64,000 bases of DNA from the IMG/VR virus record IMGVR_UViG_3300042306_000227, positions 9,268 to 73,267 of that record; one strand, written 5' to 3'. The notes below the pieces were generated by a model. It was not told where the DNA came from. It worked only from the letters and a program-made list of their open reading frames with translations, and did not search any database. Shown one piece after another: positions 2,312 to 64,000 of this stretch. Source of the DNA: a virus. The position numbers and the translations under genes were made by a program. The first letter of the stretch is position 1. Each line of letters opens with the position of its first letter.

Positions 2312-4328
2312 GACAGTAGAAATATACGGAATCAAGATTAAGCTACCTGAACGATTTAAAGTTCACAAGCGCTCAGAATACAAACGAGACCAAAAGTTTG
2401 AAAGGATTACATTCCCAGATAGCTTTTACTCAATTGAATTTGCTGAAGACGGAGTTGCGCTGTATAGCGAAGAGCAAGTGCAATACATTACGGATGAGTA
2501 CGAAAAGATGAAGCATGGCTATTGGTTTTATAACAATGGCGTGCCAACATATATCACAGGCCTCCACTACTTCTATTTAAACTACTGGACACTAGAGGAT
2601 GGCTCTAGGCCAGATTACAGAGATGCAGATAGAAGATGGTTTATTTACAGAGAGCATTGTGAATCATTGCCATACTGCTTTGGAGTTATACGTATTAAGA
2701 AGCGTCGTGAGGGAGCTACATCACAAGAGGCATGTGCGCTTGTTTACAAAGCGATTATGAAGCCTAAGTCTAACTGCGGAATAGTAAGTAAGACAGGTAA
2801 TCCAGATGCTAGAGATGTGTTCCAGAAAATGGTTGTGTGGGGATACAAGAACCTACCAGTATTCTTAAAGCCATCTGTGGAAGATGAGACATCTAAAACA
2901 AGTTTAGTATTCTCTCCTCCAAAAAGAAAAACAAAAAGTAATACAAGAACTAAGGGTCAAGTATTTGATGATGACATGGGATTAGAGTCTGTGATTGATT
3001 ACAGAAGCACTGCACTAAACTCATATGACTCTGGTCGTGTTACAGCAATACTTATTGACGAGGGTGGTAAGTGGCCAAAGGATGTGCCTATTAACAAGTA
3101 CTGGCCTATTGTAAGAAAGACCCTAACGAAGGGTATGATTAAAGTAGGTTTTGCTGTTATACCATCTACTGTGAATGACTCTGATAATGGAGGTAATGAG
3201 TTTAAAGAATTATTTGATGGTAGCTATGCTAGCGAAACAAGCAAGTTTACGGCTACAGGATTGTACCAATACTTCTGCCCAGCATACGATGGGTATGAAG
3301 GTTTTATAGATGAGTATGGGATGTCTATTATTGATAAGCCCACGAAAGAACAACAGCAATACATTAAAGAAAAGTTTGGTATTGATATAGAGGTTGGAGC
3401 AAAGGACTTCTTGATGCAACAAAGAACACTTATCAAAGACCCTACTGCCTTATCTGAAGAGGTTAGAATGAACCCATTCTCAGTAGAGGAGGCATTTAAG
3501 ATTGATGCCAAGAAATGTTATTTTGATAGCGAGATGATATACGAGCAGTTGAATATACTTTCAGTAGAGCCTGTCAGAAAAAGAAGAGGTAGATTCTTAT
3601 GGAAGGATGGGGTAAAAGGTGGAGATGTTGTATTCAGCGATGCTACAGATGGGGAATGGAGTGTAATAGAACTACCAGATGTTTCCAACTTATCACAGCA
3701 CGGAGATAGGGGTAGAGTCCCAGGAAACACACCTGTCTATGTGATGGGGGTTGACCCATTCAGAAACTCTATCGTAAACTCAAAGTATGGCTCTATGGGT
3801 TCAGCATGGATGATGAAAAAATTCAATGCCGCAGACCCAGAAAACACAGGATTGCCAGTTGCCCATTACTATGGAAGACCAAGATTAAAGACATTGTTTG
3901 ATGAGGAAATGTTAAAGGCTGCTATCTACTATGGTTGCAAGATAGTATATGAGATGGATGCCAGTGATGATATTGTAAGAACTGCAATGGAGCTTAAGCT
4001 ATTAAACTACTTAAGTAAAACTCCAGATTCTGCTATCAAGCCAGGCAAGGAAGGACAGAAAAATAAAGAGTGGGGAGTTAAGAGTTCTGACCCATACGCA
4101 ATGGGACAACAGCTTGAATTAGCAATCCAGTACACAAATAGTCACATACACAAATTATATTATGAAGAGCTTTTAGAGGAAATGCTTGTTTACGACCATA
4201 TGAATCGTACGGAATATGACCGTACAGTTAGTTTTATGATATCACTCCTTGGGATGATGGGTCATAGGACAAAACAGGAGTCTATGGTTAAAACATTGCC
4301 AATTCAAACCTTTAAGCTTAAATTGTAA
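2304..4328 (+). CDS. terL: Terminase large subunit
   Basis: Walker A-like KKRREGAT, Walker B ILIDEGGK, coupling motif ST, RNase H-fold VMGVDP, C-terminal YDRTVS. Confidence 0.92.
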   Translation: MVETVEIYGIKIKLPERFKVHKRSEYKRDQKFERITFPDSFYSIEFAEDGVALYSEEQVQYITDEYEKMKHGYWFYNNGVPTYITGLHYFYLNYWTLEDGSRPDYRDADRRWFIYREHCESLPYCFGVIRIKKRREGATSQEACALVYKAIMKPKSNCGIVSKTGNPDARDVFQKMVVWGYKNLPVFLKPSVEDETSKTSLVFSPPKRKTKSNTRTKGQVFDDDMGLESVIDYRSTALNSYDSGRVTAILIDEGGKWPKDVPINKYWPIVRKTLTKGMIKVGFAVIPSTVNDSDNGGNEFKELFDGSYASETSKFTATGLYQYFCPAYDGYEGFIDEYGMSIIDKPTKEQQQYIKEKFGIDIEVGAKDFLMQQRTLIKDPTALSEEVRMNPFSVEEAFKIDAKKCYFDSEMIYEQLNILSVEPVRKRRGRFLWKDGVKGGDVVFSDATDGEWSVIELPDVSNLSQHGDRGRVPGNTPVYVMGVDPFRNSIVNSKYGSMGSAWMMKKFNAADPENTGLPVAHYYGRPRLKTLFDEEMLKAAIYYGCKIVYEMDASDDIVRTAMELKLLNYLSKTPDSAIKPGKEGQKNKEWGVKSSDPYAMGQQLELAIQYTNSHIHKLYYEELLEEMLVYDHMNRTEYDRTVSFMISLLGMMGHRTKQESMVKTLPIQTFKLKL

Positions 4329-4353
4329 TATCTTTGTAAAATAAAGAGTTGTA

Positions 4354-6651: not shown

Positions 6652-6669
6652 ACATAAAAACAAAAAACT

Positions 6670-7818
6670 ATGACTACAAATGAAGTAAATCCATTTGATA
6701 CTGGTGCATGGAAAGACGATGAGTCTACCACTCCAGATACTAATGGAGAACAAACTACTACTGACGAAACAAAAGTAGACACACAAGACAAAACCACAGA
6801 AGATGGCGAAGCAAAACCAGACACAACCGCAGTGGATGACACCAAGAAGGATGATGGCGTTAACAACGAAGCAGTTGATAAGACGACTGATGAGGGCGAA
6901 TCTGGAGATACTTCTACGCAGGCTGAACCTGAACTAACATTCAAGAATGAGCTTTCTAAAAGAGTATTTGATGCTATCTTATCTGGCAATTATGCAGATG
7001 TTGCTCCTATTATCTACGAGCAGTCTGTGTTATCAAACTTAGATAAACTAAGCCCTCAAGATGCCGTTAAGTTACAAATGCAGTATGAGAATCCTGACAT
7101 GAGTAGCGAAGATATTGAGAAGGAGTTTAAGGACAGATATGAGTTTGAAGAAGAAAAGGTAGATACAGAATTCATGACTGAAGAGGAAATTAAAGCCCAT
7201 CAGAAAAGAGTTGAGAAAGAAAGAAAGTCTTTTGAAAAAGAGTTAAAGCGTGACGCTAGAGATGCTGTAAGGTTTCTATCTGAAAAAAGAGAAGATATTG
7301 ATATTCCTAACATCAACGAGTACATTAACTCAAAAGCTCCACAAGCTCCAGACAATTCTAAAGAAATAGATGAGTACAATGCTTATATGGAGACTGAAAG
7401 AAAGAAGTATGAAGACTCTATTGAGCCTTCTTTAGAAAAAATTACTCCATTTGAGCTAGAGTTTAAGGATGACGAGGTTAACTTTAAAGTAAACTTTGTG
7501 CCTAACAAGGAAGACTTGGAAGGAATGAAGGATAAGCTAAAAGCATTTACCTTAGAAGACTATTTTGGCCCAGAGTATTATAATCAAGAAAAAGGAGAGT
7601 ATAACACAGCTAAATTAGCTGAAGATATATACTGGAGAGAAAACAGGGAGAAGATTGTTAAGTCAATCGTATCTCAGGCAGTAGCTTCGGCTAAAGCAGA
7701 CATGCTAAAAAAGATTAAAGGCGTAAGCATTGGTGACGCCCCATCATCTTCATCATCTTCAAATACATCTAGTAGAAGTGAGTTAGATAACTTTGTAGAT
7801 AAATTATATAGCATGTAA
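6670..7818 (+). CDS. Capsid scaffolding protein
   Basis: Very acidic disordered N-terminus, helical C-terminus; lies between portal and capsid. Confidence 0.65.
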   Translation: MTTNEVNPFDTGAWKDDESTTPDTNGEQTTTDETKVDTQDKTTEDGEAKPDTTAVDDTKKDDGVNNEAVDKTTDEGESGDTSTQAEPELTFKNELSKRVFDAILSGNYADVAPIIYEQSVLSNLDKLSPQDAVKLQMQYENPDMSSEDIEKEFKDRYEFEEEKVDTEFMTEEEIKAHQKRVEKERKSFEKELKRDARDAVRFLSEKREDIDIPNINEYINSKAPQAPDNSKEIDEYNAYMETERKKYEDSIEPSLEKITPFELEFKDDEVNFKVNFVPNKEDLEGMKDKLKAFTLEDYFGPEYYNQEKGEYNTAKLAEDIYWRENREKIVKSIVSQAVASAKADMLKKIKGVSIGDAPSSSSSSNTSSRSELDNFVDKLYSM

Positions 7819-18789: not shown

Positions 18790-21700
18790 ATGAATTTTGA
18801 ACAAAATTTTAGTCCATTAGACCCCAACAGTGAAGAGTATCAATCAGTAGATAATTTTGGACAAGAGTTAGACCCTCTTGCGCCTAAAAAACCAAAAACA
18901 ATACCAGGTACAAATGTTCCAATAGGGGGCACTGGTATACCTGTTACAAAGGTAGATAAGCCATTTACTCAAATTGAGAATTCTATTAAGTCTGTTAAGA
19001 CAGCTAATACAGAATACCAAAACTTACTTGCCAAAAAAGGTGGTGCAAGCTCTGTTTATGGAGAAGCCCCTGGCGATGAAATAGAGAGAAATAAGCAATT
19101 TACATCTGCGTTAAAATCACAATCTGACGAGTTATTAAAAAAATATTCTAATGATATTAATAAACCTATAGACCAGGTTATTTCTTCTGGTAAATGGGAG
19201 GAATATATAACTGAATCTGGAGGGTTTAATTACGACAAAGCAAGAGGTTACTTTGACTATGTAGTAAAGCAAAATGGTGGTGGAACATACGTAAGAGACT
19301 TAATGATATCTAAGTTTCAAAATGCAGTAGTTGCCAAGAAAAATGAAAAAGATGTAAAGCCATTCTTAAAAGAAGAGATTGCTAAGACTGGATTAAATCT
19401 AGATAAAGATGGCAATGTAGACTTTGCAAGTATTATAGGTACTGAAAACTTAAAAGCTGGCCAAGAGGCTAAATTAAAGTCTATTGCACCTGCTCAATTT
19501 AACAAATTACAGTTAATAGAAAGCGATTCTGAAAAGCAGGTTAATCAATTACTTAATGCATCAAAAGATGTGTTTAAGCAGGAAGAACTTAAGTTTAATA
19601 CATTAAAACAGCAGGTTCAGGCTCAGTTAACAGCTGGTCAAATAACACAAGAAGAGGCACAGAATACAATTAATGATGCACTATCTGGTATTAATCAAAT
19701 GTCAGAGTCATTAAATAATGATTTTCAGAAAGCTGTTAGAGATATCAGAGTAAAGACTTCTTCTAAGTATGCAAGAATATCTAAAGAGATTGGAGCTATT
19801 GGCTCTGGTATGTCATTAGATGATATTATATCTGGTTTACCAAAAGATAAGCAAAAAGAAGTAAGAGATAGAGTTGAAGCTGCTAAGGCGAAGGTAAATA
19901 TTGCATATGAAAATGCTTACTCAAAATTATCTTCTACAAAAAATGAAGGCAAGAAAGCACAAGAATCTATGATAGGACTTGGTGGACTTGCTGGAAAATC
20001 ATTCTTAAGTGGGTGGAATAATGGCTTAGCTTCATTAGGAGGTTATCTTAACATGAACGGAATTGATAACAGTTTTGCAGATTGGTTAAGAGCTCATTCT
20101 ACAACAGGAGAAGAATTAGCTCCAGCACAATACGAGTGGAGTGGTAAAGAATGGTATAAAAGAGGTATCTCTTCTGCTATGCAATCAACAGGTATGAGTC
20201 TACCTACAATGGCACCTACATTAGCTATTACAGCAGCTGGAACAGCAGCTGGAGTACCTGCGGTAGGTCTTGCTGTTATAAATGGTGTATTAGGATATTT
20301 AGGAGAAAGAAACCAAAACTCATTTGAAGTATACGATAAAGAGATTAAGAAAGGTAGTAATCCAAATGATGCTTTAATTAAAGCGGAAACATTTGAAAGA
20401 ATGTCTGTTTCTGAATTGCCATTCCATTTATTAGGAGGTTTAGCTGACGTTAAATTATTCCAACTTGGAGCAAGTGCTACAAAGAGTGCAGGCAAGGGAG
20501 TTAAGTCTATTGTTACAGAATATGGGAAAAGCTTTGGAGGGGAATTATTAGAAGAGTATCCAACTGAGTTATTACAAAACTATAATCAAGCAAAACTTGA
20601 TGGGTATAAAGGTAGCTTATTTGAATATGGAGCATCTAACCCAGAATTATTTTTAGATACATTAGTATCTACATTAGGTCAAGGCAGTGTGTTTGCTGGT
20701 GCTGGTAAAGTATTTGGGGCATTCACAAGCGCAGCCCCAGAATCAAGAATTCAGTTTTATACTGACATGATTCAAAAGAATGGGATTGAATATGCTAAGA
20801 CGGTTGCGAAGAAGTATTATGATTCAGGTATATTAGATGGTGCAACTGCAACTTCTGTGTCAGCTGAAATTGATGATGCTTCTAAAATATATTCAGACTT
20901 ATTAGAGTCTGGTTTAGATGACAATGCTGCTAAATTGTATGTAGCAATGCATTATCAGTCTAAGAGCTTATCTTCAAAAGCGGATAATAAAAAAGAATCT
21001 GTAATGGGTTCTCTTGCTAAGTTACAGCTTGCTAATACACAATCTCAAATGAAGGAATTAGCTAATGGAACACTCCCATATGTTGTTATGGAGATACCAG
21101 GAGGCGAAAACTCTTCAAGAGTAATATCATTACAAGACTTTAACACACTTACTCCTGCTCAAAAAACAAATGTAATACAAGCATCTAACTCAATCAGTGT
21201 AATAAATGATGAAGACGCTAACACGTCATTACAAGAGCAAAAGAAGCAGTTAGGCAATACACCTAATGCTCCTGTTGGTCTATTTACCAATAACATTAAA
21301 ACAACTCAAGATGCCACTCAAGAAAGCACAAGGGAAGAGCAAATCAGCACTGAACAAGGCGGTATCAGCCAATATCAGGGAACTCAACCAATCCAAGAAC
21401 AAGCGACCAATGAAACAAAAGATAGCAATCGCCCTATCAGCGGCACGAAGAAAGTAATAACGCTTCAGAATATAAATGAGATTGAACAGATTGAAGGCAA
21501 TAATACTCAGAAAAAAGTATTAGGCGATGTAAAAAATGTTACGTCATCAATAGCTGGATTTGTTCAGCAAGATACAGGCAGCGAATTAAAGGTTAATATA
21601 CACGACCAAAACTCATTTACACAGGCTGTATTAGAAGCTGGTGGAACACAACAAGATGCAAAGTCAAAAGGGTTCTATATGTCTTCAGATGGAAACATAC

Positions 21701-24700
21701 ATTTAAACATGGACAATGTTTCAGAGGACACAATGTTACACGAAGGATTCCATCCTGTGTTAGACTATATAGAAAAAAATAGTCCAGACACAATGAATAG
21801 CCTTTTTGAGCAATTAAAGTCTATACCTCAAGCTCAAGATTTTGTTCAGAAAGCTGAGGCTGCTTACAATGAGAATGGTAGTATTACTGTTAAAAAAGAA
21901 GCAATTACAGACTTTATAGCTAACGTAGCTAATGGTAACGTTAAGGTTGATGCTACTAATTTAGAGACATTAAAGAATTATATAATAGGGTTGTTAAATA
22001 AGTTAGGGTTAAATCTTAAGCAGAATAGAATTTTAAATTTAGAAACTGCAGAAGACTTAAAGAATCTAGCTACATTTATAACAGAAAAGTTTACCTCTGG
22101 AAGTGAAATAACACAATCAGAACTTGGAAAATTTGTAGAAACCAAACCTACTGCTGAAAATCCAATTGCAAAATCTGGACAACTTCAATTTAGTAAAACA
22201 ATATATGGTGAGTCTGGTATAGAAAAATCTCCAGCACTGGATAGTGACGAGTTTGTTCAAGCTGTTCAAGATGGTAGAATATCTGTATCTAACCCATATC
22301 AATCTTTGATGGGTAAGTTTTTTGGGATTACATTCCCAGATGATTTATTTACTGGAGAACTAAAAGTAAATGGAGAAACTGTAGGTTTTGGGTTCGGTGG
22401 AGTTTTTTATGTTGCAAAATTTGGAGCTAAAGGATTAGCTTGGGCATCAGTTGGCAAGCAGTCAGCAAGCAACTTTACTATACAAGCTAATGCAAGCTTA
22501 AAAAAGAATAACGGAGAAGGTATTATTGTTTTATCAAAAGGAGATGATATTAAGCATGCTACATCTCTTCAAGCAAAGGTTGCATTTATTAATACATTAT
22601 TGAAGTACGCTGAAAACAATAATCAAGGAGAGTCTTTGGTTAAGTCTATAAGAAAAATATATAATATTGGTAACGCAAAGAGTCCTAGTAAAATTATTGA
22701 GTACTTTAATAATTACCTAGCTTCTGGAAGAATGGAATCTGGTCAAACAATGTTTGATGCTAAGGGTTCATTTGACAACTTAATGACTTCTATAATAAAA
22801 GAAGCGCAGCCTGTTATTACAAAAATGTTTCAAGATATGGGGCTTGAAGGAGATACATATTTTGATAAAACTCAATTAAGAAAGGATAATAAAATAGCTA
22901 CTACAAAGGGTTTAAAGTCTTTGTATGCAGACATGCTTCAAGAAGACTTTTTAAAAGGAGCTCCTAAAGGTGGCATATATGCAGCTATTAAATTTAGTAG
23001 CGAGTTAGAATATGTAGTTGATAAATCACATCCTTCTTATCCATATGTAATAAAAACTAAAGATGGCTCTCCTGTTAAATTAGAAGTTTTTAGTAAAACA
23101 TTTAATGCATATGGTAAAGATGTTGCAGTAAAAGGTGTTGAAAGAAATACACAAAATGCATTTGGAGTAGTAACAACAACAAAGCCTAATTTCCAAATTA
23201 ATGAGGAAATGGAAGGCAATAAATCAGAGCATATTTTATCTAATAAGTTAGATGCTTATGAAGCAATATCAAAAGGTAAATCTGCTCCACAATTCCAAAA
23301 AGATATAGTACCTACAGGTGGTGTCCCATCTGTGCCAGGAGAAACAGGAGTTGGAGAAGCAAATCAACCATCAGGATTGCCAGAAAAGAAAAAGTATTCT
23401 TGGGAGAAGGGTACATCTGGTAAGCCAGAGCCAGGAGAGACTATGATTAAGACATCTACTGGAAGATATGTCGCTATTGAGACTATGGCTGGTCAAATGA
23501 TGGATAGAGATAAGGTTATTAATGAAATAAAGAAAGCAGAACCTTCATTCTTTTCAAAGCACATTAGAGATATAAGAACTAAATGGCGTGACAATCAATA
23601 TAATGTATTAAAATCTCTTTCTGAAATAGGCAAAAGCGGGATGCTTGTAAAGCATTATTTACTTACAAGAAATAGCGCATCTGCAACTGCAACTGCAGCA
23701 GTAGAATCTGCTATTAAAGAAATATATGGGAAGATATCAAAGAAGAAAACCTTTAATATCAATGGAGCTAAGGTCACAGAATATGTTTTGTTTAATCAAA
23801 TGATTAATTATCAAAGGGTTATATCAATACAAGAACAAATGAACGATGCTTATAAGACTATGATAAGCTCTGAGCCTGGTTCACAAGAATATAACAAAGC
23901 AAAAAAGAAATTGCTTGATAACAATATGATTGATGTGAATGGTGATTATGTAGGAGAAAGTTTAGATACTGAATTCGCAATGGGTAATGTCACTGCAACT
24001 CAATCAAAAGCTTTGCTTTATGAGATAAGAGAATCAATAGGAGAAGAGTCTTTTGATAAGTTAATGAATGCTTCTGAGAAATATAGCAACCATTTTAATA
24101 AGATGATGAAAGAAAGATATGAGGCTGGTTTAATATCAGAAGACACATACAAATATCTTTCAAAGTTCTACTATGCTCCAGGCAGATACGTTAGTGATGT
24201 TTTAATTGACCCTATACTATCTATTGCAAAAACAACTCCAACATATCAAAGTACTTCTATATTGAAAATGAGGAGTCTTGCTGGAGGTACAGAAAGATTA
24301 AATCTAAATGATTACGAAGGATTATTAAGAGCTGTAACATATGCGTCTGAATATTCAATAGCAGAGAATAGGGCAACAAATAGATTCTATGACTTAATAT
24401 CAGAAAATAAAACACAGTTCAATAGTAGTGGTATTAGACTTGGTACAAAATTAGTTCCTATTGAAGCAGAAGGCCCAGTTAAGTTTGATATTATTGATGA
24501 AAAGGTAATAGCTATACAAGAAGGTAAAGCAAAGTCTGCATTAGAATTACCTAGTGGACAAAAGCAATTGCCTTATAAAGGTATTCAAAAGCCATCAGAT
24601 ATGCCAGTCGGTAAGTATATTCAACCAATTGATATTGTACTAGATGAAGATGGAAATAAGTTTAGAGTAGTATACGAAACTCCTAAAGTAGGTGAAGATA

Positions 24701-26745
24701 TTATTAAAACATATTATAATGGTCAACAATATGATATTATAGTTCCAGCTTGGTTTGCTGATGCATGGTATAACAGGAATATGGCTACAGGAGATACGTC
24801 TTCCTTAATAGCTAAAATAACTGGAGCAAATGTTTTAAGGCTAGTAGCTACTGGTATTAACCCTGTATTCGGTATTGCTCAAATTGTACCAGATACAATA
24901 TCAGCATATGCATCCACACTAGAAGAAAGAAAACTTCCTTTGCTTATAGACTACCCTAGGTTCTTTATAAAGACATTAGCTGCTTCAAGGGATATTATGA
25001 AAAAAACAGATGATTTTAAAGAAGCGACTAAATATGGAGCTACTACAAATTTCTACAACGGAGGTTCTGTTTCTTTTGAAAGAGGATTGATGGGTCTAGA
25101 GGATAAGTCTTTAGAGAAGGTTGTAGAAGAGTGGAATGTGCCTGTGTTAAAACAGTATGTTATGGGGTCTAAAAGAATCACAGAGACTACAGAACAAATG
25201 ACAAAAGTTGCTATATATAAAGAGATAAGAGACAGAAAAATAAAAGAATTTAAGCAGGAGAATAATAGAGAGCCAAACTCGCAAGAACTAGAAGACATAA
25301 AAATAGAGTCTGGGTCTATGGCAAGAGGTACTGCTGATTTCCATAGAAAGGGTTCTAGCGCATCTAATGTGAATAAGGTTATACCATACTTAAATGCAGC
25401 TATACAAATTAACAGAGCTGTATTAAGGTCTATTAAAAAGAATCCAATGAAAGCTGTATACTACTCTATGGAGTATATGGGTCATGCTGCTGTATTTAGT
25501 TTAATGGCTATGGGAGCTGGTGATGATGATGAATTAAAAGAAAAGAAAAGAAGGGCATACTTAGGTCTTAGTGAATTTGAGAGGGATAATAACTTTTTAA
25601 TGTACTTTAATGAGTCAGAAGGAAAGTTTGTAGCTCAAAAACTACCTTCATTCTTAGTCCCATTTAATGCATTTTCAAGAAGGCTTACAGAAAGAATATA
25701 CCTTGAGAAAAAAGAGATTACACCAAAAGACATTCGTGAAATTGCGTCTAGTGTAGCAGATATGTTCCCTTTATTGCAAATATTAAATGTTGAAAAAACT
25801 TTATCTAGAAACCCAGCATATAGCTTTGCAGCAAAACTATTCTTCAATAGAGACCCTTATAGACAAGAAGCGGTAGCTAAATACGATGAGTCTACAAAAA
25901 ACTACCTAGAAGGAGCTATGATAGGGAAAGAGCAATCTTCTGCATTTTCAAGAAAAATAGGTGAGTTAACAAAAAATGGAGTGCCATTATTCCCAGAAGG
26001 TATTTCTCCAAAAAGACTTGATGCGGCACTTGGCTCTATACCATTCCAATCTAACCCAATATCAGCATTCCCATTATTTGCGGCAGATGCAACAAGTATA
26101 ACAATGGAAGAATTTGAAGAAAAGTACGGCAAGAATGCTGCTAGTATCATTCTGTCTGCAAGTGGAATCTCAAAAAGATACTTTAAGGGCGGAAGTAGAA
26201 TAAATCAAAATTTAGCTGGATTATCACTTGAGAATATAAAAGACAGAGGCGAAATGAAAAACAAGATAGCTGAAATGATTCTGCCAAAGTTTGAAGAATT
26301 TACAAAGAATATGACTAGAGAAGATGCATTTGTAAAGGCAACTGAAGATTTTATATCAAATGAGTTTGATAAGTTAACGGTTGAGCAAAAGATAATAGCT
26401 CAAGGATATATAACTGGCGACCTTAGAGGTAGAATATTTAATGTTACAAAAGACAAGCAAGTATCTCAAATATTAAATATGGAAGACCCTAATGCTAAGA
26501 TAGATGCTATATTGTACACAATGAAGAATGTTAGAACCACAGATAGCTCAAGAGATGCATTTATAAACGAGCTTGTTCAAAATGGGATAACAGCTAACGA
26601 GTCTTTTGGTAGAATGTTAGCAGTAAGAGGTGAACAAGAACTTCCAAACCCAGAGACTGGTGTAATGGAGAAGAATAACAGGTATGAAAAAGAGGTAGGA
26701 GAGCTGTTGAAGAAACTGACAATAATCTTTGAAAAGTCTCAATAA
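18790..26745 (+). CDS. Giant internal virion protein with zincin-like HExxH and LPD38-like C-terminal region
   Basis: 2651 aa; TMLHEGFH at 21739-21753; DFHRKG..IPYLNAAIQ..ERDNNF pattern near the C-terminus. Confidence 0.7.
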   Translation: MNFEQNFSPLDPNSEEYQSVDNFGQELDPLAPKKPKTIPGTNVPIGGTGIPVTKVDKPFTQIENSIKSVKTANTEYQNLLAKKGGASSVYGEAPGDEIERNKQFTSALKSQSDELLKKYSNDINKPIDQVISSGKWEEYITESGGFNYDKARGYFDYVVKQNGGGTYVRDLMISKFQNAVVAKKNEKDVKPFLKEEIAKTGLNLDKDGNVDFASIIGTENLKAGQEAKLKSIAPAQFNKLQLIESDSEKQVNQLLNASKDVFKQEELKFNTLKQQVQAQLTAGQITQEEAQNTINDALSGINQMSESLNNDFQKAVRDIRVKTSSKYARISKEIGAIGSGMSLDDIISGLPKDKQKEVRDRVEAAKAKVNIAYENAYSKLSSTKNEGKKAQESMIGLGGLAGKSFLSGWNNGLASLGGYLNMNGIDNSFADWLRAHSTTGEELAPAQYEWSGKEWYKRGISSAMQSTGMSLPTMAPTLAITAAGTAAGVPAVGLAVINGVLGYLGERNQNSFEVYDKEIKKGSNPNDALIKAETFERMSVSELPFHLLGGLADVKLFQLGASATKSAGKGVKSIVTEYGKSFGGELLEEYPTELLQNYNQAKLDGYKGSLFEYGASNPELFLDTLVSTLGQGSVFAGAGKVFGAFTSAAPESRIQFYTDMIQKNGIEYAKTVAKKYYDSGILDGATATSVSAEIDDASKIYSDLLESGLDDNAAKLYVAMHYQSKSLSSKADNKKESVMGSLAKLQLANTQSQMKELANGTLPYVVMEIPGGENSSRVISLQDFNTLTPAQKTNVIQASNSISVINDEDANTSLQEQKKQLGNTPNAPVGLFTNNIKTTQDATQESTREEQISTEQGGISQYQGTQPIQEQATNETKDSNRPISGTKKVITLQNINEIEQIEGNNTQKKVLGDVKNVTSSIAGFVQQDTGSELKVNIHDQNSFTQAVLEAGGTQQDAKSKGFYMSSDGNIHLNMDNVSEDTMLHEGFHPVLDYIEKNSPDTMNSLFEQLKSIPQAQDFVQKAEAAYNENGSITVKKEAITDFIANVANGNVKVDATNLETLKNYIIGLLNKLGLNLKQNRILNLETAEDLKNLATFITEKFTSGSEITQSELGKFVETKPTAENPIAKSGQLQFSKTIYGESGIEKSPALDSDEFVQAVQDGRISVSNPYQSLMGKFFGITFPDDLFTGELKVNGETVGFGFGGVFYVAKFGAKGLAWASVGKQSASNFTIQANASLKKNNGEGIIVLSKGDDIKHATSLQAKVAFINTLLKYAENNNQGESLVKSIRKIYNIGNAKSPSKIIEYFNNYLASGRMESGQTMFDAKGSFDNLMTSIIKEAQPVITKMFQDMGLEGDTYFDKTQLRKDNKIATTKGLKSLYADMLQEDFLKGAPKGGIYAAIKFSSELEYVVDKSHPSYPYVIKTKDGSPVKLEVFSKTFNAYGKDVAVKGVERNTQNAFGVVTTTKPNFQINEEMEGNKSEHILSNKLDAYEAISKGKSAPQFQKDIVPTGGVPSVPGETGVGEANQPSGLPEKKKYSWEKGTSGKPEPGETMIKTSTGRYVAIETMAGQMMDRDKVINEIKKAEPSFFSKHIRDIRTKWRDNQYNVLKSLSEIGKSGMLVKHYLLTRNSASATATAAVESAIKEIYGKISKKKTFNINGAKVTEYVLFNQMINYQRVISIQEQMNDAYKTMISSEPGSQEYNKAKKKLLDNNMIDVNGDYVGESLDTEFAMGNVTATQSKALLYEIRESIGEESFDKLMNASEKYSNHFNKMMKERYEAGLISEDTYKYLSKFYYAPGRYVSDVLIDPILSIAKTTPTYQSTSILKMRSLAGGTERLNLNDYEGLLRAVTYASEYSIAENRATNRFYDLISENKTQFNSSGIRLGTKLVPIEAEGPVKFDIIDEKVIAIQEGKAKSALELPSGQKQLPYKGIQKPSDMPVGKYIQPIDIVLDEDGNKFRVVYETPKVGEDIIKTYYNGQQYDIIVPAWFADAWYNRNMATGDTSSLIAKITGANVLRLVATGINPVFGIAQIVPDTISAYASTLEERKLPLLIDYPRFFIKTLAASRDIMKKTDDFKEATKYGATTNFYNGGSVSFERGLMGLEDKSLEKVVEEWNVPVLKQYVMGSKRITETTEQMTKVAIYKEIRDRKIKEFKQENNREPNSQELEDIKIESGSMARGTADFHRKGSSASNVNKVIPYLNAAIQINRAVLRSIKKNPMKAVYYSMEYMGHAAVFSLMAMGAGDDDELKEKKRRAYLGLSEFERDNNFLMYFNESEGKFVAQKLPSFLVPFNAFSRRLTERIYLEKKEITPKDIREIASSVADMFPLLQILNVEKTLSRNPAYSFAAKLFFNRDPYRQEAVAKYDESTKNYLEGAMIGKEQSSAFSRKIGELTKNGVPLFPEGISPKRLDAALGSIPFQSNPISAFPLFAADATSITMEEFEEKYGKNAASIILSASGISKRYFKGGSRINQNLAGLSLENIKDRGEMKNKIAEMILPKFEEFTKNMTREDAFVKATEDFISNEFDKLTVEQKIIAQGYITGDLRGRIFNVTKDKQVSQILNMEDPNAKIDAILYTMKNVRTTDSSRDAFINELVQNGITANESFGRMLAVRGEQELPNPETGVMEKNNRYEKEVGELLKKLTIIFEKSQ
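21311..21457 (+). CDS. Overprinted small basic protein (48 aa) nested in the giant gene
   Basis: MPLKKAQGKSKSALNKAVSANIRELNQSKNKRPMKQKIAIALSAARRK; A-rich start context aacattaaaacaactcaagATG. Confidence 0.65.
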   Translation: MPLKKAQGKSKSALNKAVSANIRELNQSKNKRPMKQKIAIALSAARRK

Positions 26746-56724: not shown

Positions 56725-57132
56725 TTAAGATTGCAAATCTAATGCATTGCTTAATTCATCTTCTATTTTAGACACGAATAATTTATAATTATTAATTGCA
56801 TACACTGAATTGGGGTTAGATGCCATGTAACTAATTGATTGACAGCTCACTCCTAAATAGTTAGCCAAATGGGAAACTTTTATGGCGTACCTATTTATAA
56901 GTATAAAAACTATCATCTTTTTTGCTTGCTTGGCATCTGATGATTTTCTCCATGAAATGATTTCTTCCACAGAAACATTATAAATTTCAGTAATACGATT
57001 GACAACATATTGAATAATTTTTTGATGAATGTCATCATCCCCAATTTTCTTGAGGATGACAACACATCTTTTATTATCCTTTAGGCATTCTTGCTTTAGC
57101 TCATCAATAAGCCTTTGGATTTTGTCTGACAT
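56725..57132 (-). CDS. Second DnaA domain IV-like HTH protein
   Basis: YNVSVEEIISWRKS..AKKMIVFIL..LANYLGVSCQSISY; start moved to ATG 57132. Confidence 0.6.
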   Translation of the reverse strand: MSDKIQRLIDELKQECLKDNKRCVVILKKIGDDDIHQKIIQYVVNRITEIYNVSVEEIISWRKSSDAKQAKKMIVFILINRYAIKVSHLANYLGVSCQSISYMASNPNSVYAINNYKLFVSKIEDELSNALDLQS

Positions 57133-57425
57133 TAGATTGTTATTTTGATACATTTAACTACAGACTTGGTTTTCTTTGGCTCTCTTTCTAGGATATTAGC
57201 TGATAGCCTGTTACCCCATTTTTTAACCACCACAAACCTTTCATTGCTCACAGGTTCCTCAAACATCAGGTCAAACTTGCTCCTATGCTTGTTGTGGTGC
57301 TGTTTGCCATCAGACTTGTTCCATGCTAGGAATGATTTTTGTCCTGCTACTAAACCTAAAATTAGGTCTTTTGTCTCTCCGATTTGGTTAACTTGTAAAC
57401 CATTTTTTGTTCTTAGATTTTTCAT
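57132..57425 (-). CDS. Hypothetical protein
   Basis: 97 aa, A-rich start region. Confidence 0.55.
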   Translation of the reverse strand: MKNLRTKNGLQVNQIGETKDLILGLVAGQKSFLAWNKSDGKQHHNKHRSKFDLMFEEPVSNERFVVVKKWGNRLSANILEREPKKTKSVVKCIKITI

Positions 57426-57579
57426 TTGTTTTTATTTTTTGGTTAATGAAAATTATTGTTTTAAGAAATAGTACATCAATCCGAATATGAAATACATGGG
57501 TATCATCATCCATATATTATCAGATGCGCTTATGTCTTTGTCCCATAGAAACGCACCAATACCCAATGCTATTGCGACC

Positions 57580-57870
57580 TCAATCACCTTTTTTATTTTC
57601 TTCATCCTTGAATATGTTTTTTAAAATTTCCTCACCTTCCATCTCTCGTTCAAATTGCCTGTAGCCATCGTTCATAGATAGTGTCATTGCTTTGCTTAAT
57701 ACTAGCAAATCAATTACGCTCTTACCTGATAAATCGCTACATGCTTTGATTAGATGCGATGCTTGTAAACATCTTACCTTTTTAAACTGCTCGTCTTTTG
57801 ACATAACTGCTTCTAGTGTTAGCTGTGATGCTATGCTGACAATTAGTTCAACGCCTTTCAAATTCTCCAT
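57580..57870 (-). CDS. Hypothetical protein
   Basis: 96 aa. Confidence 0.5.
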   Translation of the reverse strand: MENLKGVELIVSIASQLTLEAVMSKDEQFKKVRCLQASHLIKACSDLSGKSVIDLLVLSKAMTLSMNDGYRQFEREMEGEEILKNIFKDEENKKGD

Positions 57871-58036
57871 TGTTGTATGTTGTGTTATTAATTAATCCTG
57901 TTCCTTTGCAATCTTTACATTCGTATGCTTTTTCATAATCTAAACCTTGCTCCTCACTTCCTGCATAGTCTAAATAGAATCCATCACCCTTGCATGTGGG
58001 ACATGTGATTGTGATTTGTACATGCGCTTGTTTCAT
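57848..58036 (-). CDS. DnaJ-type zinc finger protein
   Basis: CPTCKGDG..CKDCKGTG. Confidence 0.7.
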   Translation of the reverse strand: MKQAHVQITITCPTCKGDGFYLDYAGSEEQGLDYEKAYECKDCKGTGLINNTTYNNGEFERR

Positions 58037-58230
58037 GATGTTTCGTTTATTTCGTTTAAGAATGCTTTTTCTTTGATAGGGTCACTCACCCATAGGTTAT
58101 ATAACTCCTCTAGTTGTTTATATCTATCTTCTGAATACCACGCATTGTGATACAATTCTGCGATAAATATTTGTCTTTCTCTAGGTGTCAAATCTGTGAA
58201 TGTTGATACCTGTTGTTTTAATATGCTCAT
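58033..58230 (-). CDS. Hypothetical early protein
   Basis: 65 aa, coupled. Confidence 0.55.
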   Translation of the reverse strand: MSILKQQVSTFTDLTPRERQIFIAELYHNAWYSEDRYKQLEELYNLWVSDPIKEKAFLNEINETS

Positions 58231-58237
58231 TGTTTTT

Positions 58238-58540
58238 TTAATTTAAATTGTCAAATGCCCTGTTAATTATATCGTTTATTGCTTGGATGTTAGGCTTATG
58301 TTCATCCTCATCAAAATCAATTGTATTGATTAACTCTTTAGCACGATGATTGATGATAGTTATGGCTGTCTGTATCTCTGCATCATCCCATAGTTGTTCT
58401 ATCTTAGTGACATACAGGATGGATGTTATTACAGCATCCATGAAATCATTGTAGTCATCATCGTTCTGAATAGCTACATCTACTACTATCTTAGTTAATA
58501 TATTTATCAGGACTTCCTGACCTGTCATGCTCATGCTCAT
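58238..58540 (-). CDS. Acidic hypothetical early protein
   Basis: 100 aa, Asp-rich. Confidence 0.55.
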   Translation of the reverse strand: MSMSMTGQEVLINILTKIVVDVAIQNDDDYNDFMDAVITSILYVTKIEQLWDDAEIQTAITIINHRAKELINTIDFDEDEHKPNIQAINDIINRAFDNLN

Positions 58541-58752
58541 ACGATATGATTTATTTTTTTATACTTGTTGTTACATAAATTCACTACAGAAAAATACAAT
58601 ACATCATTCTCATGAACTCCCATGTCACTAAACACCCACCACTTGTCATGTCCCTGATTATTGTATTCATGTGTAGCATAATACTTGTTCTCATCCATTG
58701 ATACTTCAAAATGTTCTTTGGTATCAATCTTAATTAAATTTACTTTGTCCAT
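58537..58752 (-). CDS. Hypothetical early protein
   Basis: Start moved to ATG 58752, just after the upstream stop. Confidence 0.5.
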   Translation of the reverse strand: MDKVNLIKIDTKEHFEVSMDENKYYATHEYNNQGHDKWWVFSDMGVHENDVLYFSVVNLCNNKYKKINHIV

Positions 58753-58753
58753 G

Positions 58754-58957
58754 TTAATTGGTTTTTGTTGCGATGAATAAAATATGTACATAAGGTGAAT
58801 CATAAGGTACATTCAATTGGTCACATACTTGGTTCCATGACTCAATGTCTTGTACAAAATCTTCAGGATATAGTGTAAGATACTTTGGTGTGGGAGCTAT
58901 GTCCCACTTGCCAATAGTTAATACTTTCTGCTGTTGCTCTGTTAAAAATTTTTCCAT
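58754..58957 (-). CDS. Hypothetical early protein
   Basis: 67 aa. Confidence 0.55.
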   Translation of the reverse strand: MEKFLTEQQQKVLTIGKWDIAPTPKYLTLYPEDFVQDIESWNQVCDQLNVPYDSPYVHILFIATKTN

Positions 58958-58959
58958 GT

Positions 58960-59967
58960 TTATATGTTTTCATAGTTATCAAATGAATTGTTATATTCCT
59001 CTATCTCTGAGTAGATAGGCTTAGCACCTATGTACATCTTCTCACATTCACTGCATAGATGGAATCCATCGTATCTGTGTGATGCCACATTTACATTACA
59101 TTCATCGCAATGGTACAATCCTTCAACTTCTTTTTCAAATTGTCCTGTCTCTGTACCCATCAATGTAAGGTATCCGTAATCCTTAGCACATGATGTGCAA
59201 CAATCAAACTTCTTCTCGTATGATGTCTTGTATACCCAATCATCACAATCTAGGCAATGGATGTAGTCACCTGCCTGATGTTTAATTTCTGCTGAGTCTC
59301 TGTCAATATGAAAGTCTAACTTGCTTTGTGTAGCACCTTTGTCCCAATCATAGTTGTACTTGTTAGTCTTCTTGCTGTCATACTTGTGAATCTTAGTGCC
59401 ACCATAATCTAACCATTCGCTAGGCTTGTAGTTGCTGTTGCTGAACAATACACCTGTCTCTGTATCTGTAACGCATGCATGCTCGTTAACGATATATACC
59501 TTGTTGTCAATAGTCAGGAATGCAAACTTGCTACCTACAATGTCTCTGCCTATCAAATCCATGATAGCCTTCTGTTTGTAAAAGTCTCTAGGTAACTTGC
59601 GTAATACCTGCTCCATGTATTGGTATGTGTCACTGCGCTTGGCTGTTGATGGGAATTGTCTGATGATACCATTGTGAACGAATACCAAACCTTTGTTGAT
59701 AAGAAATGGATGTGTATTCTCATAGTCTACATTACTGCCTGTGGCAATCCTGCCATGACCTATGAAATGTGATTGAGGATATTTAGCAACAGCATCCTGA
59801 TACTTATTCCATAATTGCTTTGCATCAGGCTTTGCTGACTTAACGATGACTAGCCTGTCACCTGTGGTGTATACGAATCCGAATCCTTGAGGATTGTTTT
59901 CTATGATGGTGTTGAAATGGTCTTGCTTTAAGACTTGCTTAGGTTTTTTTACAAAGAATGTACACAT
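58960..59967 (-). CDS. Class II (Ntn) glutamine amidotransferase with C-terminal Cys clusters
   Basis: Catalytic Cys2; NPQGFG; HGRIATG; NTHPF; HNGII; SDT; four CxxC motifs; promoter TAACTTTG at 59991-98. Confidence 0.9.
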   Translation of the reverse strand: MCTFFVKKPKQVLKQDHFNTIIENNPQGFGFVYTTGDRLVIVKSAKPDAKQLWNKYQDAVAKYPQSHFIGHGRIATGSNVDYENTHPFLINKGLVFVHNGIIRQFPSTAKRSDTYQYMEQVLRKLPRDFYKQKAIMDLIGRDIVGSKFAFLTIDNKVYIVNEHACVTDTETGVLFSNSNYKPSEWLDYGGTKIHKYDSKKTNKYNYDWDKGATQSKLDFHIDRDSAEIKHQAGDYIHCLDCDDWVYKTSYEKKFDCCTSCAKDYGYLTLMGTETGQFEKEVEGLYHCDECNVNVASHRYDGFHLCSECEKMYIGAKPIYSEIEEYNNSFDNYENI

Positions 59968-60083
59968 AGTTTTGATTATTTGATTGTTTACAAAGTTAGT
60001 TATAATATTTTGTTTGACAAAATTTGTAGGGGATTAAATTAATCTAGGAATAGATATGTCGCTTCCCCTACAGCCATGAAAAA

Positions 60084-62237
60084 TTAAAAAGGATTTTGAG
60101 ATGAATCAGTTAATAAGTTTAGACTCAATTCATGTTCATTGAATATATACACGAATCTATTACCATCTAGTCTCTTAGCTAGAGCGCATATATATGTGCC
60201 ATCCTCGTGTCTGATAAAGTTCATGTAGTACCTTTCAGATGACAAAGTAGATAGCTTAAATTCAGCCCTGAAACACATGTTTGTTGTATCTGTGAATCTA
60301 GATGTGGTAATTAGCATTGCAAATATTCTGTTGAAAAATGACATCTCGCTCTGAGAATATGTTTGACATACTTGCATATCATTGTCTCTGCATGAATCAA
60401 ATAATCTTTCTGTCTGTGAATTAATAACCGATACAGGCAATGTCTCATAGTTTAATACAGAGCTAATCACACCACCAATAGTATTCAATGCTTTTTTCAC
60501 CATGATACTAAAGTTACTGCTGTATTCACATGGTGTGCCTAATGATACCATGCTGTTTGGCGCAAAGAATTGACATAGCTGTTCATTTGTCGCTCTCAAA
60601 TTGTTTACATAAATTTCATCTGAAAGGAATGCTGTATTCAATTCTGTTCTTGACCTTGATGATAGTTCTCTGTATCTTACTACATCCTGAGCGAATGATG
60701 GTTCTTCTGTCACATCTGTAGAACGCTCCTGTCTGTATGAATCATCCACATTATTTGCGCTGTATGTACCTAATGTAGGCAAATCATCTGAGAATCTACT
60801 AGCATCAAAACTTCCACCTGTCACCTGTGTATCAGGTAAGTCTACATGGAATACTCTTTCTCTAGGTGCTTCTGTAGGTACTTCTGTAGTCTCTGTAGGA
60901 GTAATGATACTCATGCTCATCATCTGCTCAACTTTCTTAATCGTGTTAATTGTAACGATACCACATTTGTACTTAGCTGATAATGTGATGAATGTCTTGA
61001 ACTTGTTCTTGAACTTATCCATGTCACCATTGCACACTACATTAAGCATAAAATTATATAGCTTAGAATTCTTTTTAGCCATCTCAAGGATAACCTTGTT
61101 ATGTGTCTTACCATACAGGTCATTTAATACTATGCGCATCAAATCAATTCTGTTCTTAAGGATGGTGTTGCTCTTAATTGCAGGGAATATTCTGAATTCA
61201 AGAATCTCATTGTTCTTCACATAGAATGATTGGTATTTTCTAGGTGAGCGAAGGTATGTACCAAACTGCTGTGCTTGGCAATAGCTGTTGTTTAAACGCT
61301 TCTCATAGATTGAATAGAATATTGGTAAACTTCCTTTCACTTTCTTAAGGATGTCCTTAGATTGTACACCATTGATTGATACATTGATGTGACCGCCACA
61401 TCTGTCGCTAGTTTCCGCATCCAATATGTCTCTAACAGGTGCAAGTACTTCATTGATGACTGCATCATTGTTCAATGGCAATACAGGAGAAATCAATTCA
61501 AATCCACCATCACCTAAACTTCCATCTCTCTCTTTCTTAAATCCTGTCTCAAACGCTAGTTTAATAGCATTCTCTCTGTCCCTGAATGTATAGTCTTGCT
61601 TCTCTGCTTCAAAACCAAAGTTAACTGCACCTAGAGTCTTGTCCATGTACTTTGTGAAATTAGATGCAATCTTTGGATGCCATGCTGAATAATGATAACC
61701 TAGCAATGTATCTGTTCCCCAAATTTGGCTGTCATCTGTAACCTTTACAAGTCTTCCAACTTCCACCAATGACTCTGTTAAATCAGGTGCAATCATATCA
61801 TCACTGATAACAATAACTTTAATCTTGTATCCGTTATGCTCTCTGTTTTCATCAATGTAATACTTCATACCGAATTCATTTACTAGCAAATCAAATAGTG
61901 AACTGCTGATATGAATTTCTGTATCATTTAGCTTTAATCTTATTCTGCTTCCACCTGAATGTGTTGAATACAATTGTGGTACGATTATTCTTCCGCTGTT
62001 CATTTTAGCTAGTCTGAACATGTTAGCATATCTGCTTTCACTATTCGTTCCTGATGAGTAAACGCTCTCGTAATCATAGACTGCATCACTTGTCATTGAA
62101 CTTGATGTCATGACTACAAACTTTTGGATGTACTTGTTAGAGAATGCATCCAATGGTAATAAAAATTTGTTTCTGCTTCTCTCATTTACAGGTGTCAATA
62201 CAGAGAATTTTCTAGGTTGTTTTTTAACTTGATTCAT
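60084..62237 (-). CDS. Amidoligase (COOH-NH2 ligase / glutamine-synthetase-like fold) with flanking domains
   Basis: FGFEAE..DGSL..GFELISP..CGGHIN..LEFRIF; start moved to ATG 62237. Confidence 0.8.
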   Translation of the reverse strand: MNQVKKQPRKFSVLTPVNERSRNKFLLPLDAFSNKYIQKFVVMTSSSMTSDAVYDYESVYSSGTNSESRYANMFRLAKMNSGRIIVPQLYSTHSGGSRIRLKLNDTEIHISSSLFDLLVNEFGMKYYIDENREHNGYKIKVIVISDDMIAPDLTESLVEVGRLVKVTDDSQIWGTDTLLGYHYSAWHPKIASNFTKYMDKTLGAVNFGFEAEKQDYTFRDRENAIKLAFETGFKKERDGSLGDGGFELISPVLPLNNDAVINEVLAPVRDILDAETSDRCGGHINVSINGVQSKDILKKVKGSLPIFYSIYEKRLNNSYCQAQQFGTYLRSPRKYQSFYVKNNEILEFRIFPAIKSNTILKNRIDLMRIVLNDLYGKTHNKVILEMAKKNSKLYNFMLNVVCNGDMDKFKNKFKTFITLSAKYKCGIVTINTIKKVEQMMSMSIITPTETTEVPTEAPRERVFHVDLPDTQVTGGSFDASRFSDDLPTLGTYSANNVDDSYRQERSTDVTEEPSFAQDVVRYRELSSRSRTELNTAFLSDEIYVNNLRATNEQLCQFFAPNSMVSLGTPCEYSSNFSIMVKKALNTIGGVISSVLNYETLPVSVINSQTERLFDSCRDNDMQVCQTYSQSEMSFFNRIFAMLITTSRFTDTTNMCFRAEFKLSTLSSERYYMNFIRHEDGTYICALAKRLDGNRFVYIFNEHELSLNLLTDSSQNPF

Positions 62238-62265
62238 GGCTGTGAATTTTTGGTTATTGGTTAAA

Positions 62266-62457
62266 TTATTTGATTGATTTTTGAGCATTGTCATAGTACA
62301 TGTAACTTCCTAATGCACCTGTCGTAAACACAAAGCATATGATTGCTAGATTGACAGCTGTTGGTTCCATTGTCATGAAACCTAATACAGGAATGAACAT
62401 TGTCACGATTGACAATAAAACTGCTAATACCATGTTGATTTTGTAATAATTACTCAT
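62266..62457 (-). CDS. Early two-TM membrane protein
   Basis: Two hydrophobic helices. Confidence 0.6.
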   Translation of the reverse strand: MSNYYKINMVLAVLLSIVTMFIPVLGFMTMEPTAVNLAIICFVFTTGALGSYMYYDNAQKSIK

Positions 62458-62692
62458 TTGATTAAGATTTACTGATTGATTAAATTGTTATAAATACAGG
62501 TTCTTTTTTGCTGTCACTTTCGTATACATAAAAAAAGTAATTAGGGAAATAGCTTTGCAACCTTTCTACTTCTTTCTCTGCCTCATGTTTAGTTTTATAA
62601 TAGCCATGTGAACCAATGTTTCCATAGCCTGAATCCTCAATGACATGATAATACTTCCTCATTTGATTAAGATTTATGATTGATAAAATTGT
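62453..62692. repeat. ~35-bp direct repeat over two early start regions
   Basis: CTCATTTGATTAAGATTTA(C)TGATTGATWAAATTGT at 62453-62488 and 62658-62692. Confidence 0.75.
62480..62662 (-). CDS. Hypothetical early protein (60 aa)
   Basis: MRKYYHVIEDSGYG..; true start lies in the repeated start-region block. Confidence 0.6.
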   Translation of the reverse strand: MRKYYHVIEDSGYGNIGSHGYYKTKHEAEKEVERLQSYFPNYFFYVYESDSKKEPVFITI

Positions 62693-62846
62693 GAACGATG
62701 GTGAATAAAGATGGCGCAAAGTTTCCCTGTAATTCATGCAGTACAATTGTTCCATCTGTGTTGATAGCTTCTACCTGATACACATCAAATTCATGTGTGT
62801 AATCATCTGTGAACGATACATAATCGTATACTTTAAATTGTCCCAT
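62667..62846 (-). CDS. First early gene (59 aa, not in ORF track)
   Basis: My translation: MGQFKVYDYVSFTDDYTHEFDVYQVEAINTDGTIVLHELQGNFAPSLF..; A-rich start region just after the ribozyme. Confidence 0.65.
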   Translation of the reverse strand: MGQFKVYDYVSFTDDYTHEFDVYQVEAINTDGTIVLHELQGNFAPSLFTIVHNFINHKS

Positions 62847-62865
62847 GTTAAATGGTTTTTTAATT

Positions 62866-62917
62866 ACTATTTCATCCTTTCGGAATCATCAGCACACATA
62901 ACACATGTGTGTATAGC
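62866..62917 (-). ncRNA. Hammerhead ribozyme, type III topology
   Basis: GCUAU-A / CACACAU-guguu-AUGUGUG / CUGAUGA / UUCC-gaaa-GGAU / GAA-AUAGU; predicted cleavage after AUA, between 62912 and 62911. Confidence 0.85.
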
Positions 62918-62949
62918 ATCGCAATCCCTAGTATGCTCATCTGTATGCT

Positions 62950-63178
62950 CTATGTCTGTTCCTGTACTTAGATAACGATTTACATCGTGATGGGTACATT
63001 ATCTGTAGCTACATGCAGTCTATTGTATAAAAGTTCATGCTTTCAAGCTAACTACTAGCATGATGTGTATGCATTCAATCATGGCGTAGTGTACTTGGTG
63101 TGTCTCTGTAGCCTGTCTACTTTTGTTCCTGTACTTATAGTGTGCTTGTCAGCAGTTTTGGGTACATTGTCCGTAGAT
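62950..63178 (-). ncRNA. Duplicated structured RNA motif in the early leader
   Basis: Two copies of CUACrGAyAAUGUACCC-[variable hairpin]-UAAGUACAGGAACA. Confidence 0.55.
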
Positions 63179-63251
63179 GTCGTTGATTGTCAATCAGTTA
63201 TGTATTGGATATACATGTAACGCATTGATTATCAATAACTTAGGCGTAAAC

Positions 63252-63288
63252 TTCAAAGAACTTGTCGTGCATTGACATCACAATACTA
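63252..63288 (-). promoter_or_regulatory. Early promoter followed by a hairpin and boxA-like site
   Basis: TAGTATTG (-7 variant), then UGUC-N7-GACA hairpin, then GUUCUUUGAA. Confidence 0.55.
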
Positions 63289-63420
63289 CATCATGTATGT
63301 ATACAAACATCAATTGCACCCAAATATTTTTCAAGATATTTTTTTAGACACAGATAACACAATGTGAATCAATCAGATGCAACAGAAAAAAAATTTTAAA
63401 AAAAGTTATCAGGACAGCAA

Positions 63421-63835
63421 ACAGGGATAATTGCAAACGTTTGCGGAAATATTTGCGGAAGAAATACACAGGACAAAATCAGGGACATATATAGTATGTG
63501 ATTGTTAACAGACAACAGAAGGAAACAGGACACAATGTATACAGGAGAAAACACAGGAGAGAATAGTTATAACTAAGAACTTAGTCACACACAGGAGAGA
63601 CACAGGAAGACAGGCAAAGGTCATTTCGGATTATTACACAGGGACAAAATACACAGGAGATAGGTAAGCATGACAGATACACAGGAGAAAAAGCATATAG
63701 GTGTATGGGCAATGTTACGCATACAGGCTTACATAGGCATCTGATAACACTATAACACATTGATTGATAATGAATTAGGTTAGTAACCTACATTAGGATT
63801 GACCTACCCACTCAGGCAAAGCAGTTTCCCACAGG
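63421..63835. repeat. Co-oriented ACAGG repeat field in the terminal non-coding region
   Basis: 13 ACAGG copies counted, including four exact ACACAGGAGA. Confidence 0.75.
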
Positions 63836-64000
63836 TTAGGCATGGCCTGTCATTAATACTGGAACCCTACGCTATCAGATTGATGCCCTTATTCTTAATA
63901 GGCTGGAATGGGCAAATGTGTATGCAGATTGCAAGGTGCAGAAAGACCTACCCATGTGCTGAAAGCATATGTACCCAGTCTGCAGAACGTTAAGTTGCTG

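Follow-up and report, generated by a model that had tools for sequence, protein, structure and literature searches.

The sequence described here, referred to as the window, comprises the final 64,000 bases of the 73,267-base virus record IMGVR_UViG_3300042306_000227. One protein of this phage, 1297 aa long, has a match to the muzzle protein family of Crassvirus (E 2.6e-18), and the public sequencing runs in which the stretch carrying the hammerhead motif was found are lake and freshwater metagenomes; the source is a freshwater crAss-like phage. The start and the end of the record are the same over 7.2 kb (genome positions 1–7205 and 66073–73267, the latter equivalent to window 56806–64000), with 99.5% identity. 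The 36 differences that separate these copies are all confined to window 63447–63922, and a G+C-rich hairpin is located immediately beyond the point where the record stops. This 7.2-kb "terminal repeat" looks like the product of wrap-around assembly of population (strain) variants rather than true genome ends.

The site of interest lies within a region of ~1.5 kb that contains no genes, flanked on one side by a leftward gene cluster that includes a primase/helicase and on the other side by rightward genes. One protein of the leftward cluster (335 aa, window 58960–59967, minus strand) has an N terminus resembling class-II glutamine amidotransferases, starting from Cys2, which is followed by cysteine-rich, zinc-ribbon-like repeats. 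The window contains no detectable tRNA or tmRNA. The features of the minus strand, with the evidence on which they are placed, are as follows; L001 is a locus of a close relative and L003 is a metagenome contig, both described below.

63294–63400, minus strand: upstream segment near-identical in L001, with an abrupt end at ~63293 (alignment with L001)
63196–63293, minus strand: window-specific leader of ~98 nt, from the breakpoint of conservation with L001 to the module (alignments with L001 and L003)
62919–63195, minus strand: conserved non-coding module of ~285 nt, common with L003 3343–3630 (blastn, 91.7%)
63185–63193, minus strand: 5′ strand of closing helix P1, pairing with 62926–62919 (RNAalifold and both single-sequence folds)
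63087–63172, minus strand: internal repeat unit 1 of the module (repeat families D5 and D9)
62920–63005, minus strand: internal repeat unit 2 of the module (repeat families D5 and D9)
62919–62926, minus strand: 3′ strand of closing helix P1, ending 1–2 nt before stem III of the hammerhead
62866–62917, minus strand: type III hammerhead motif (sequence, local fold, descriptor scan and pair comparison with L003; no Rfam match)
62917–62913, minus strand: 5′ strand of stem III (sequence)
62912/62911, minus strand: A62912 as position 17, with the predicted cut between A62912 and C62911 at the AUA site (sequence)
62911–62905 with 62899–62893, minus strand: 7-bp stem I, loop of 5 nt (sequence)
62892–62886, minus strand: CUGAUGA core (sequence)
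62885–62882 with 62877–62874, minus strand: stem II with a U·U first pair and a GAAA loop (sequence)
62873–62870, minus strand: GAAA core (sequence)
62870–62866, minus strand: 3′ strand of stem III; 62918/62865 may form a sixth pair
62667–62846, minus strand: first gene after the ribozyme, 59 aa, corresponding to the C-terminal part of a 135-aa protein in L001

The hammerhead put forward in the initial annotation, with its complete core, AUA site, stems, and U-U pair, can be read directly in the sequence. Core nucleotides C3 U4 G5 A6 N7 G8 A9, as well as G12 A13 A14, are present on the minus strand at 62892–62886 and 62873–62871, respectively, the A15.1–U16.1 pair is formed by A62870 and U62913, and position 17 is occupied by A62912, a residue other than G. 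The three helices around the core comprise 7 bp (I), 3 bp preceded by the U·U pair (II), and 5–6 bp (III), with helices I and II closed by loops and helix III open. The sole deviation from the usual arrangement is found at the beginning of stem II, where the G10.1–C11.1 pair is absent and U62885 is placed opposite U62874. Such a U10.1–U11.1 start of stem II is documented as a natural hammerhead variant (PMC3088659), and the account by Perreault et al. 2011 (PMC3088659) describes this mismatch as the one that supports the most cleavage of all mispaired combinations. The motif is present in a single copy, in non-coding sequence and in the sense orientation. It does lie shortly before the first ATG, as had been noted, with 19 bases separating it from the ATG at 62846 and with the predicted cut located 66 nt before that codon.

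The Rfam hammerhead models, which the initial annotation had named as a check, failed to detect the motif, whether at the gathering score or at E ≤ 10, in stretches of 701 b and 86 b. A search of the whole genome with RF00008 (gathering score 48.5 bits) also gave no match to it, and no further Rfam ribozyme class was found in 62700–63400. A descriptor of the type III hammerhead, requiring a stem I of at least 5 bp, a stem II of at least 3 bp after a tolerated first mismatch, and a stem III of at least 4 bp, matched the non-redundant genome of 66,072 b only once, at the motif described here. The same descriptor matched 2 of 400 random genomes generated with an order-1 Markov model, and looser settings matched 47 and 105 of the 400. 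Since a chance of ~0.5% per genome would yield many accidental cases across the very many windows that were scanned, it is the recurrence in L003 that raises the motif above the level expected of accidental matches. The minimum free energy fold of the local 66 nt is the three-way junction, at −12.9 kcal/mol (z = −1.09, with 28 of 200 shuffled sequences as stable). In longer transcripts, the hammerhead fold lies 2.2–5.0 kcal/mol above the minimum and takes a share of ~0.06–1% of the ensemble, values given by an energy model that ignores tertiary contacts. Taken as it reads, the sequence most probably represents a genuine type III hammerhead of the U10.1·U11.1 variant.

The stretch upstream of the motif had been described as having no credible ORF, and this holds: there is no ORF of at least 30 aa with a start codon on the minus strand in 62847–63343, and the longest stop-to-stop frame in the gene-free stretch of that strand is 43 aa. 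The duplicated RNA motif reported in the same place is also present, as families D5 (22 nt, 86% identity) and D9 (18 nt, 89%), the copies being spaced by 167–168 nt, and so is the long inverted repeat, at ~63243–63183. In the window-specific leader (~98 nt, 63196–63293) there is a single TTGAYAATCAA palindrome, along with the 5′ half of an imperfect hairpin of some length. Only two exact copies of this palindrome occur in the window, at 63183–63193 and 63225–63235, 42 nt apart, and they look like operators. The copy at 63183–63193 doubles as the 5′ strand of the closing helix of the module, and another copy with one mismatch is present further upstream, at 63764–63774. The region upstream, conserved also in L001, includes at least six copies of a 10–12-nt motif, ACACAGGAGA (plus strand), in window 63460–63700; this array could represent protein-binding sites or an origin-like region. 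A stretch of ~160 nt with a higher G+C content (window 63800–63960) is near-identical to L001 4700–4860 and has no Rfam or tRNA match.

The initial annotation had also called the upstream RNA structured, a description that its folding energy does not bear out, the 454-nt leader being no more stable than shuffled sequences (z = −0.72, 20 of 100 as stable). With two loci known, the support for structure in the module is thin. The closing helix P1, which pairs the two ends of the module, has eight pairs in the RNAalifold consensus of the window and L003, with one compensatory change, the C63189–G62922 pair of the window being replaced by U–A in L003. When the 20 substitutions of L003 were placed on the single-sequence fold of the window, in a comparison of two loci only, four pairs were broken against a random mean of 6.0, and 3558 of 20,000 random placements were as good; in the reverse test, again limited to two loci, eight pairs were broken against 7.9 at random, with 12,604 of 20,000 placements as good. 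Neither test reaches significance. The consensus fold of the two repeat units is weak (−3.6 kcal/mol).

When metagenome contigs were scanned for two conserved blocks of the internal repeats, a single contig, L003, was retrieved. Window 63202–62906 aligns with L003 3340–3636 at 91.7% identity over 300 columns, with 19 mismatches and three gaps (blastn), and the similarity of the module continues weakly to 62906, that is, into the first bases of the hammerhead. The flanks of the shared block are unrelated on both sides. Both the indels in the block, which measure 1 and 2 nt, and the lack of conservation of its small frames argue that the shared module is non-coding. All eight ORFs of L003 lack a match in the window genome (E ≥ 0.2), and the contig carries tryptophan-halogenase and major-tail-protein PHROGs; L003 is a contig of a different, otherwise unrelated phage.

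Approximately 45 nt past the module, L003 has a type III hammerhead of its own (3668–3725), which aligns with the whole RF00008 model with a score of 33.5 bits that falls short of the gathering score (E 2.6e-5), and which is also matched by the type III descriptor. No other ribozyme class was found in L003 3200–3900, and the descriptor gave no match in L001, in L002, or in the locus of Cellulophaga phage phi14:2. The hammerheads of the window and of L003 have a common layout, with an AUA site, a 7-bp stem I capped by a 5-nt loop, and a stem II of four positions. Stems I and III of the two contain standard pairs in 25 of 26 cells, and 7 of the 13 pairs differ on both sides. Their stem sequences are different, and outside the core the two motifs cannot be aligned, which indicates that they were not inherited jointly with the ~92%-identical module. 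No gene on the same strand directly follows the hammerhead in L003, the next ORFs (3751–4084) being on the opposite strand; the feature common to both loci is, by this comparison, a hammerhead placed 3′ of the module, and not one placed 5′ of a gene. For the discrete ncRNA of ~365 nt that had been proposed, the outcome is divided: a conserved non-coding module of ~285 nt with a hammerhead next to it exists, and it recurs in L003, whereas an unusual structure is not supported.

The closest relative of the window phage is represented by two loci, L001 and L002, of one IMG/VR contig. L001 is near-identical to the window upstream, down to ~63293, and its genes are 96% identical, with the segment equivalent to 63293–62837 replaced by a short leader and the gene for the 135-aa protein. 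This nearest relative lacks both the module and the ribozyme. Two DNA runs from other samples contain the stretch: a contig of run X5 covers 62829–63038 with no differences, and a contig of run X7 covers 62658–63446 with five differences, none of them in 62866–62917. A gene of ~60 aa (window 62453–62657) is absent from both L001 and the X7 contig, where 62452 is joined to 62658, and represents a presence/absence polymorphism. Strain variants diverge from the window at loose ends located at 62853, 62838, and 62872, just upstream of the first gene.

Outside these samples, the unit is rare. No match was found among GenBank phages by blastn with 2 kb, and tblastn with the neighboring 736-aa protein gave one weak match. 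Scans of IMG/VR with the promoter stretch and with the coding motif returned L001 and L002 only, and those with the hammerhead stretch and three module motifs returned none; metagenome contigs scanned with the coding motif, and prokaryote genomes in two scans, also gave zero hits. The module is missing from all 33 IMG/VR loci that encode relatives of the 118-aa gene adjacent to it in L003. The closest of these loci, L005, shares with L003 only ~20 nt past the stop codon before the two diverge, and among the relatives of this gene the descriptor matched in its loose form only, elsewhere in L007 and L008. A search of related phages for the same arrangement, as had been suggested, has therefore given a mixed result, with the unit absent from L001, but with the module and a hammerhead present in the unrelated L003. 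The same is true of conservation more generally: it fails in L001, from which the whole unit is missing, yet L003 and two independent lake metagenomes, the latter with an unchanged hammerhead, contradict the view that the unit is not conserved. The absence of the unit from L001, as well as from the 33 loci with relatives of the L003 gene, marks it as a rare and dispensable accessory cassette. As read from these alignments, the module and the ribozyme are an accessory cassette in a mosaic spot, swapped between strains.

Signals that might direct transcription of the cassette were also evaluated. The segment 63294–63400 is a candidate promoter and transcription-start region. The boxA-like site reported earlier could not be recovered: with up to 3 of 12 mismatches to the boxA consensus allowed, there was no match in 62847–63300, and the matches across the window are at the chance level (104 found, 99 expected). 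A scan for sigma-70 promoters was likewise not above chance (six found, 7.7 expected), and no terminator-like site was detected in 62400–64000. Contigs from RNA libraries fall in the gene-free stretch, X20 at 63004–63157 (six differences) and X19 at 63232–63393 and 63387–63456, and none fall on the genes at 62000–62846; these are low-depth contigs from libraries that may hold DNA, in runs chosen with the same stretch, and they are not counted as evidence of transcription. The early timing claimed for the leftward transcript is suggested by the gene order. In crAss-like phages, the virion RNA polymerase is encoded downstream of the muzzle protein gene, and in the window this position is taken by a 2651-aa protein (18790–26745). 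It has neither a DFDxD-type motif nor a Pfam match, and the idea that the transcript is early because it is made by the virion polymerase is not backed by this candidate.

The arrangement of these elements suggests a mechanism in which the leader of the leftward gene cluster would include, on the minus strand of 63195–62866, an accessory RNA cassette made of two parts. The first part would be the module of ~285 nt, with its ends paired in the closing helix, and the second part the adjoining type III hammerhead. RNA polymerase would make the module, the ribozyme, and the genes as a single RNA, in which the hammerhead would fold and cut between A62912 and C62911. The cut would free the module, together with any 5′ leader, as an RNA with a 2′,3′-cyclic phosphate end and without the use of a terminator, and the downstream mRNA would be left with a 5′-OH end and a leader of 66 nt. 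That two unrelated phages have the same module, each with a different hammerhead, points to the cutting free of an ncRNA at its 3′ end during ongoing transcription. We consider it probable, at roughly 60%, that the ribozyme forms the 3′ terminus of a mobile ncRNA of the phage, with the polymerase transcribing onward into the genes. A more specific proposal is tentative, namely that the module may be a new class of horizontally mobile phage ncRNA, which would obtain its 3′ end from interchangeable hammerheads, be set free where the leftward transcript begins, and act in trans, for instance through two repeat units that titrate a host defense protein or RNA-binding protein.

An active hammerhead could instead serve the processing of the mRNA, removing a long leader and giving the message of the first gene a 5′-OH end and a short A-rich leader, with a change in stability or translation, while the upstream RNA would be a degraded by-product. 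The position of the cut, 66 nt before the ATG, would suit this function, as would the exchange of the leader cassette between strains, and processing of polycistronic transcripts is among the roles proposed for bacterial and phage hammerheads in reviews (PMC6765202). The L003 hammerhead, however, has no same-strand gene directly after it, the ORFs at 3751–4084 being on the other strand, and a conservation of 91.7% between unrelated phages, in a module whose flanks are not conserved, is hard to explain for a leader that is discarded, so that we regard this explanation as unlikely. It is similarly improbable that the motif is inactive in cleavage and resembles a hammerhead by accident or as the remains of one, in which case the 430-nt gap would be a recombination scar or a long 5′ UTR in a mosaic region. 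The lack of an Rfam match and the non-standard pair at 10.1/11.1, the most conserved pair of the stems, would agree with this explanation, as would the preference for other folds in a long context and the absence of the motif from the nearest relative; in addition, one strain variant diverges inside the motif, at 62872, so that the 3′ strand of stem III is common to a leader that does not have the remainder. On the other hand, the descriptor matched only 2 of 400 random genomes, the motif is found in non-coding sequence and in the sense orientation, a U·U pair at 10.1/11.1 is a documented natural variant (PMC3088659), and an independent hammerhead that does match RF00008 occupies the same place after the module of L003.

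Even less probable, in our view, is that the module acts as DNA, either as a protein-binding region or as a non-autonomous mobile element of small size bounded by short terminal inverted repeats, in which case the hammerheads would be unrelated punctuation. Its ends do form an imperfect inverted repeat of 8–9 bp, it is associated with the operator-like TTGAYAATCAA palindromes, and its occurrence in two unrelated phages is sporadic. Nevertheless, the change on both sides of the terminal repeat retains complementarity, as fits an RNA helix, a hammerhead follows the module in the same orientation in both loci, and no transposase is found nearby.

If the reading of the module as a mobile ncRNA is true, phage hammerheads would gain a defined role as terminator-free makers of the 3′ ends of ncRNAs. 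The combination of one module with two different hammerheads makes such a role directly testable. Within one phage population, the cassette occurs in certain strains and is absent from others, the pattern expected of accessory functions in host interaction. Among the long non-coding RNAs of crAss-like phages that still lack an explanation, the module would be a second candidate, one defined by its sequence.

Such RNAs are known from the crAss-like phage phi14:2, in which abundant early long non-coding RNAs originate from the intergenic regions g004–g005 and g005–g006, with no function assigned to them (bioRxiv 10.1101/2020.03.07.982082). Both phages are crAss-like and both have a long gene-free stretch beside a gene cluster opposite in strand to the structural genes. 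They differ in that the phi14:2 region has no sequence similarity to the window stretch (blastn, phage collection) and no hammerhead at E ≤ 1, and in that a transcript is known there, whereas the RNA of the window is predicted from sequence. The long gene-free region of phi14:2 (4031–4502) contains a tmRNA match of 46 bits, compared with a gathering score of 47 bits (E 2.6e-16). Outside phages, ribozymes of eukaryotic retroelements are described as cutting a defined RNA out of a longer transcript, no terminator being involved (PMC6765202); the principle of release is the same as that proposed here, although those cases are eukaryotic and the present one is from a phage.

Intergenic hammerheads are common in phages and prophages, with thousands known, and their purpose is still called undefined in the accounts cited here (PMC6155905, PMC6765202). 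The window motif shares with them the core, the three-stem junction, the type III topology, the intergenic place, and the sense orientation (PMC3088659, RF00008), and its rare U·U start of stem II is shared with variants reported by Perreault et al. 2011 (PMC3088659). As a hammerhead, it is one more phage member, of the rare U·U variant. Compared with the phage hammerheads in these descriptions, it differs in being below the level of Rfam detection, in its single copy, in not flanking a small gene, and in adjoining a conserved non-coding module, a second copy of which is found in an unrelated phage, followed by a different hammerhead. What is new, on the comparison of the two loci, is that a single conserved non-coding module, shared horizontally, is combined with two different hammerheads.
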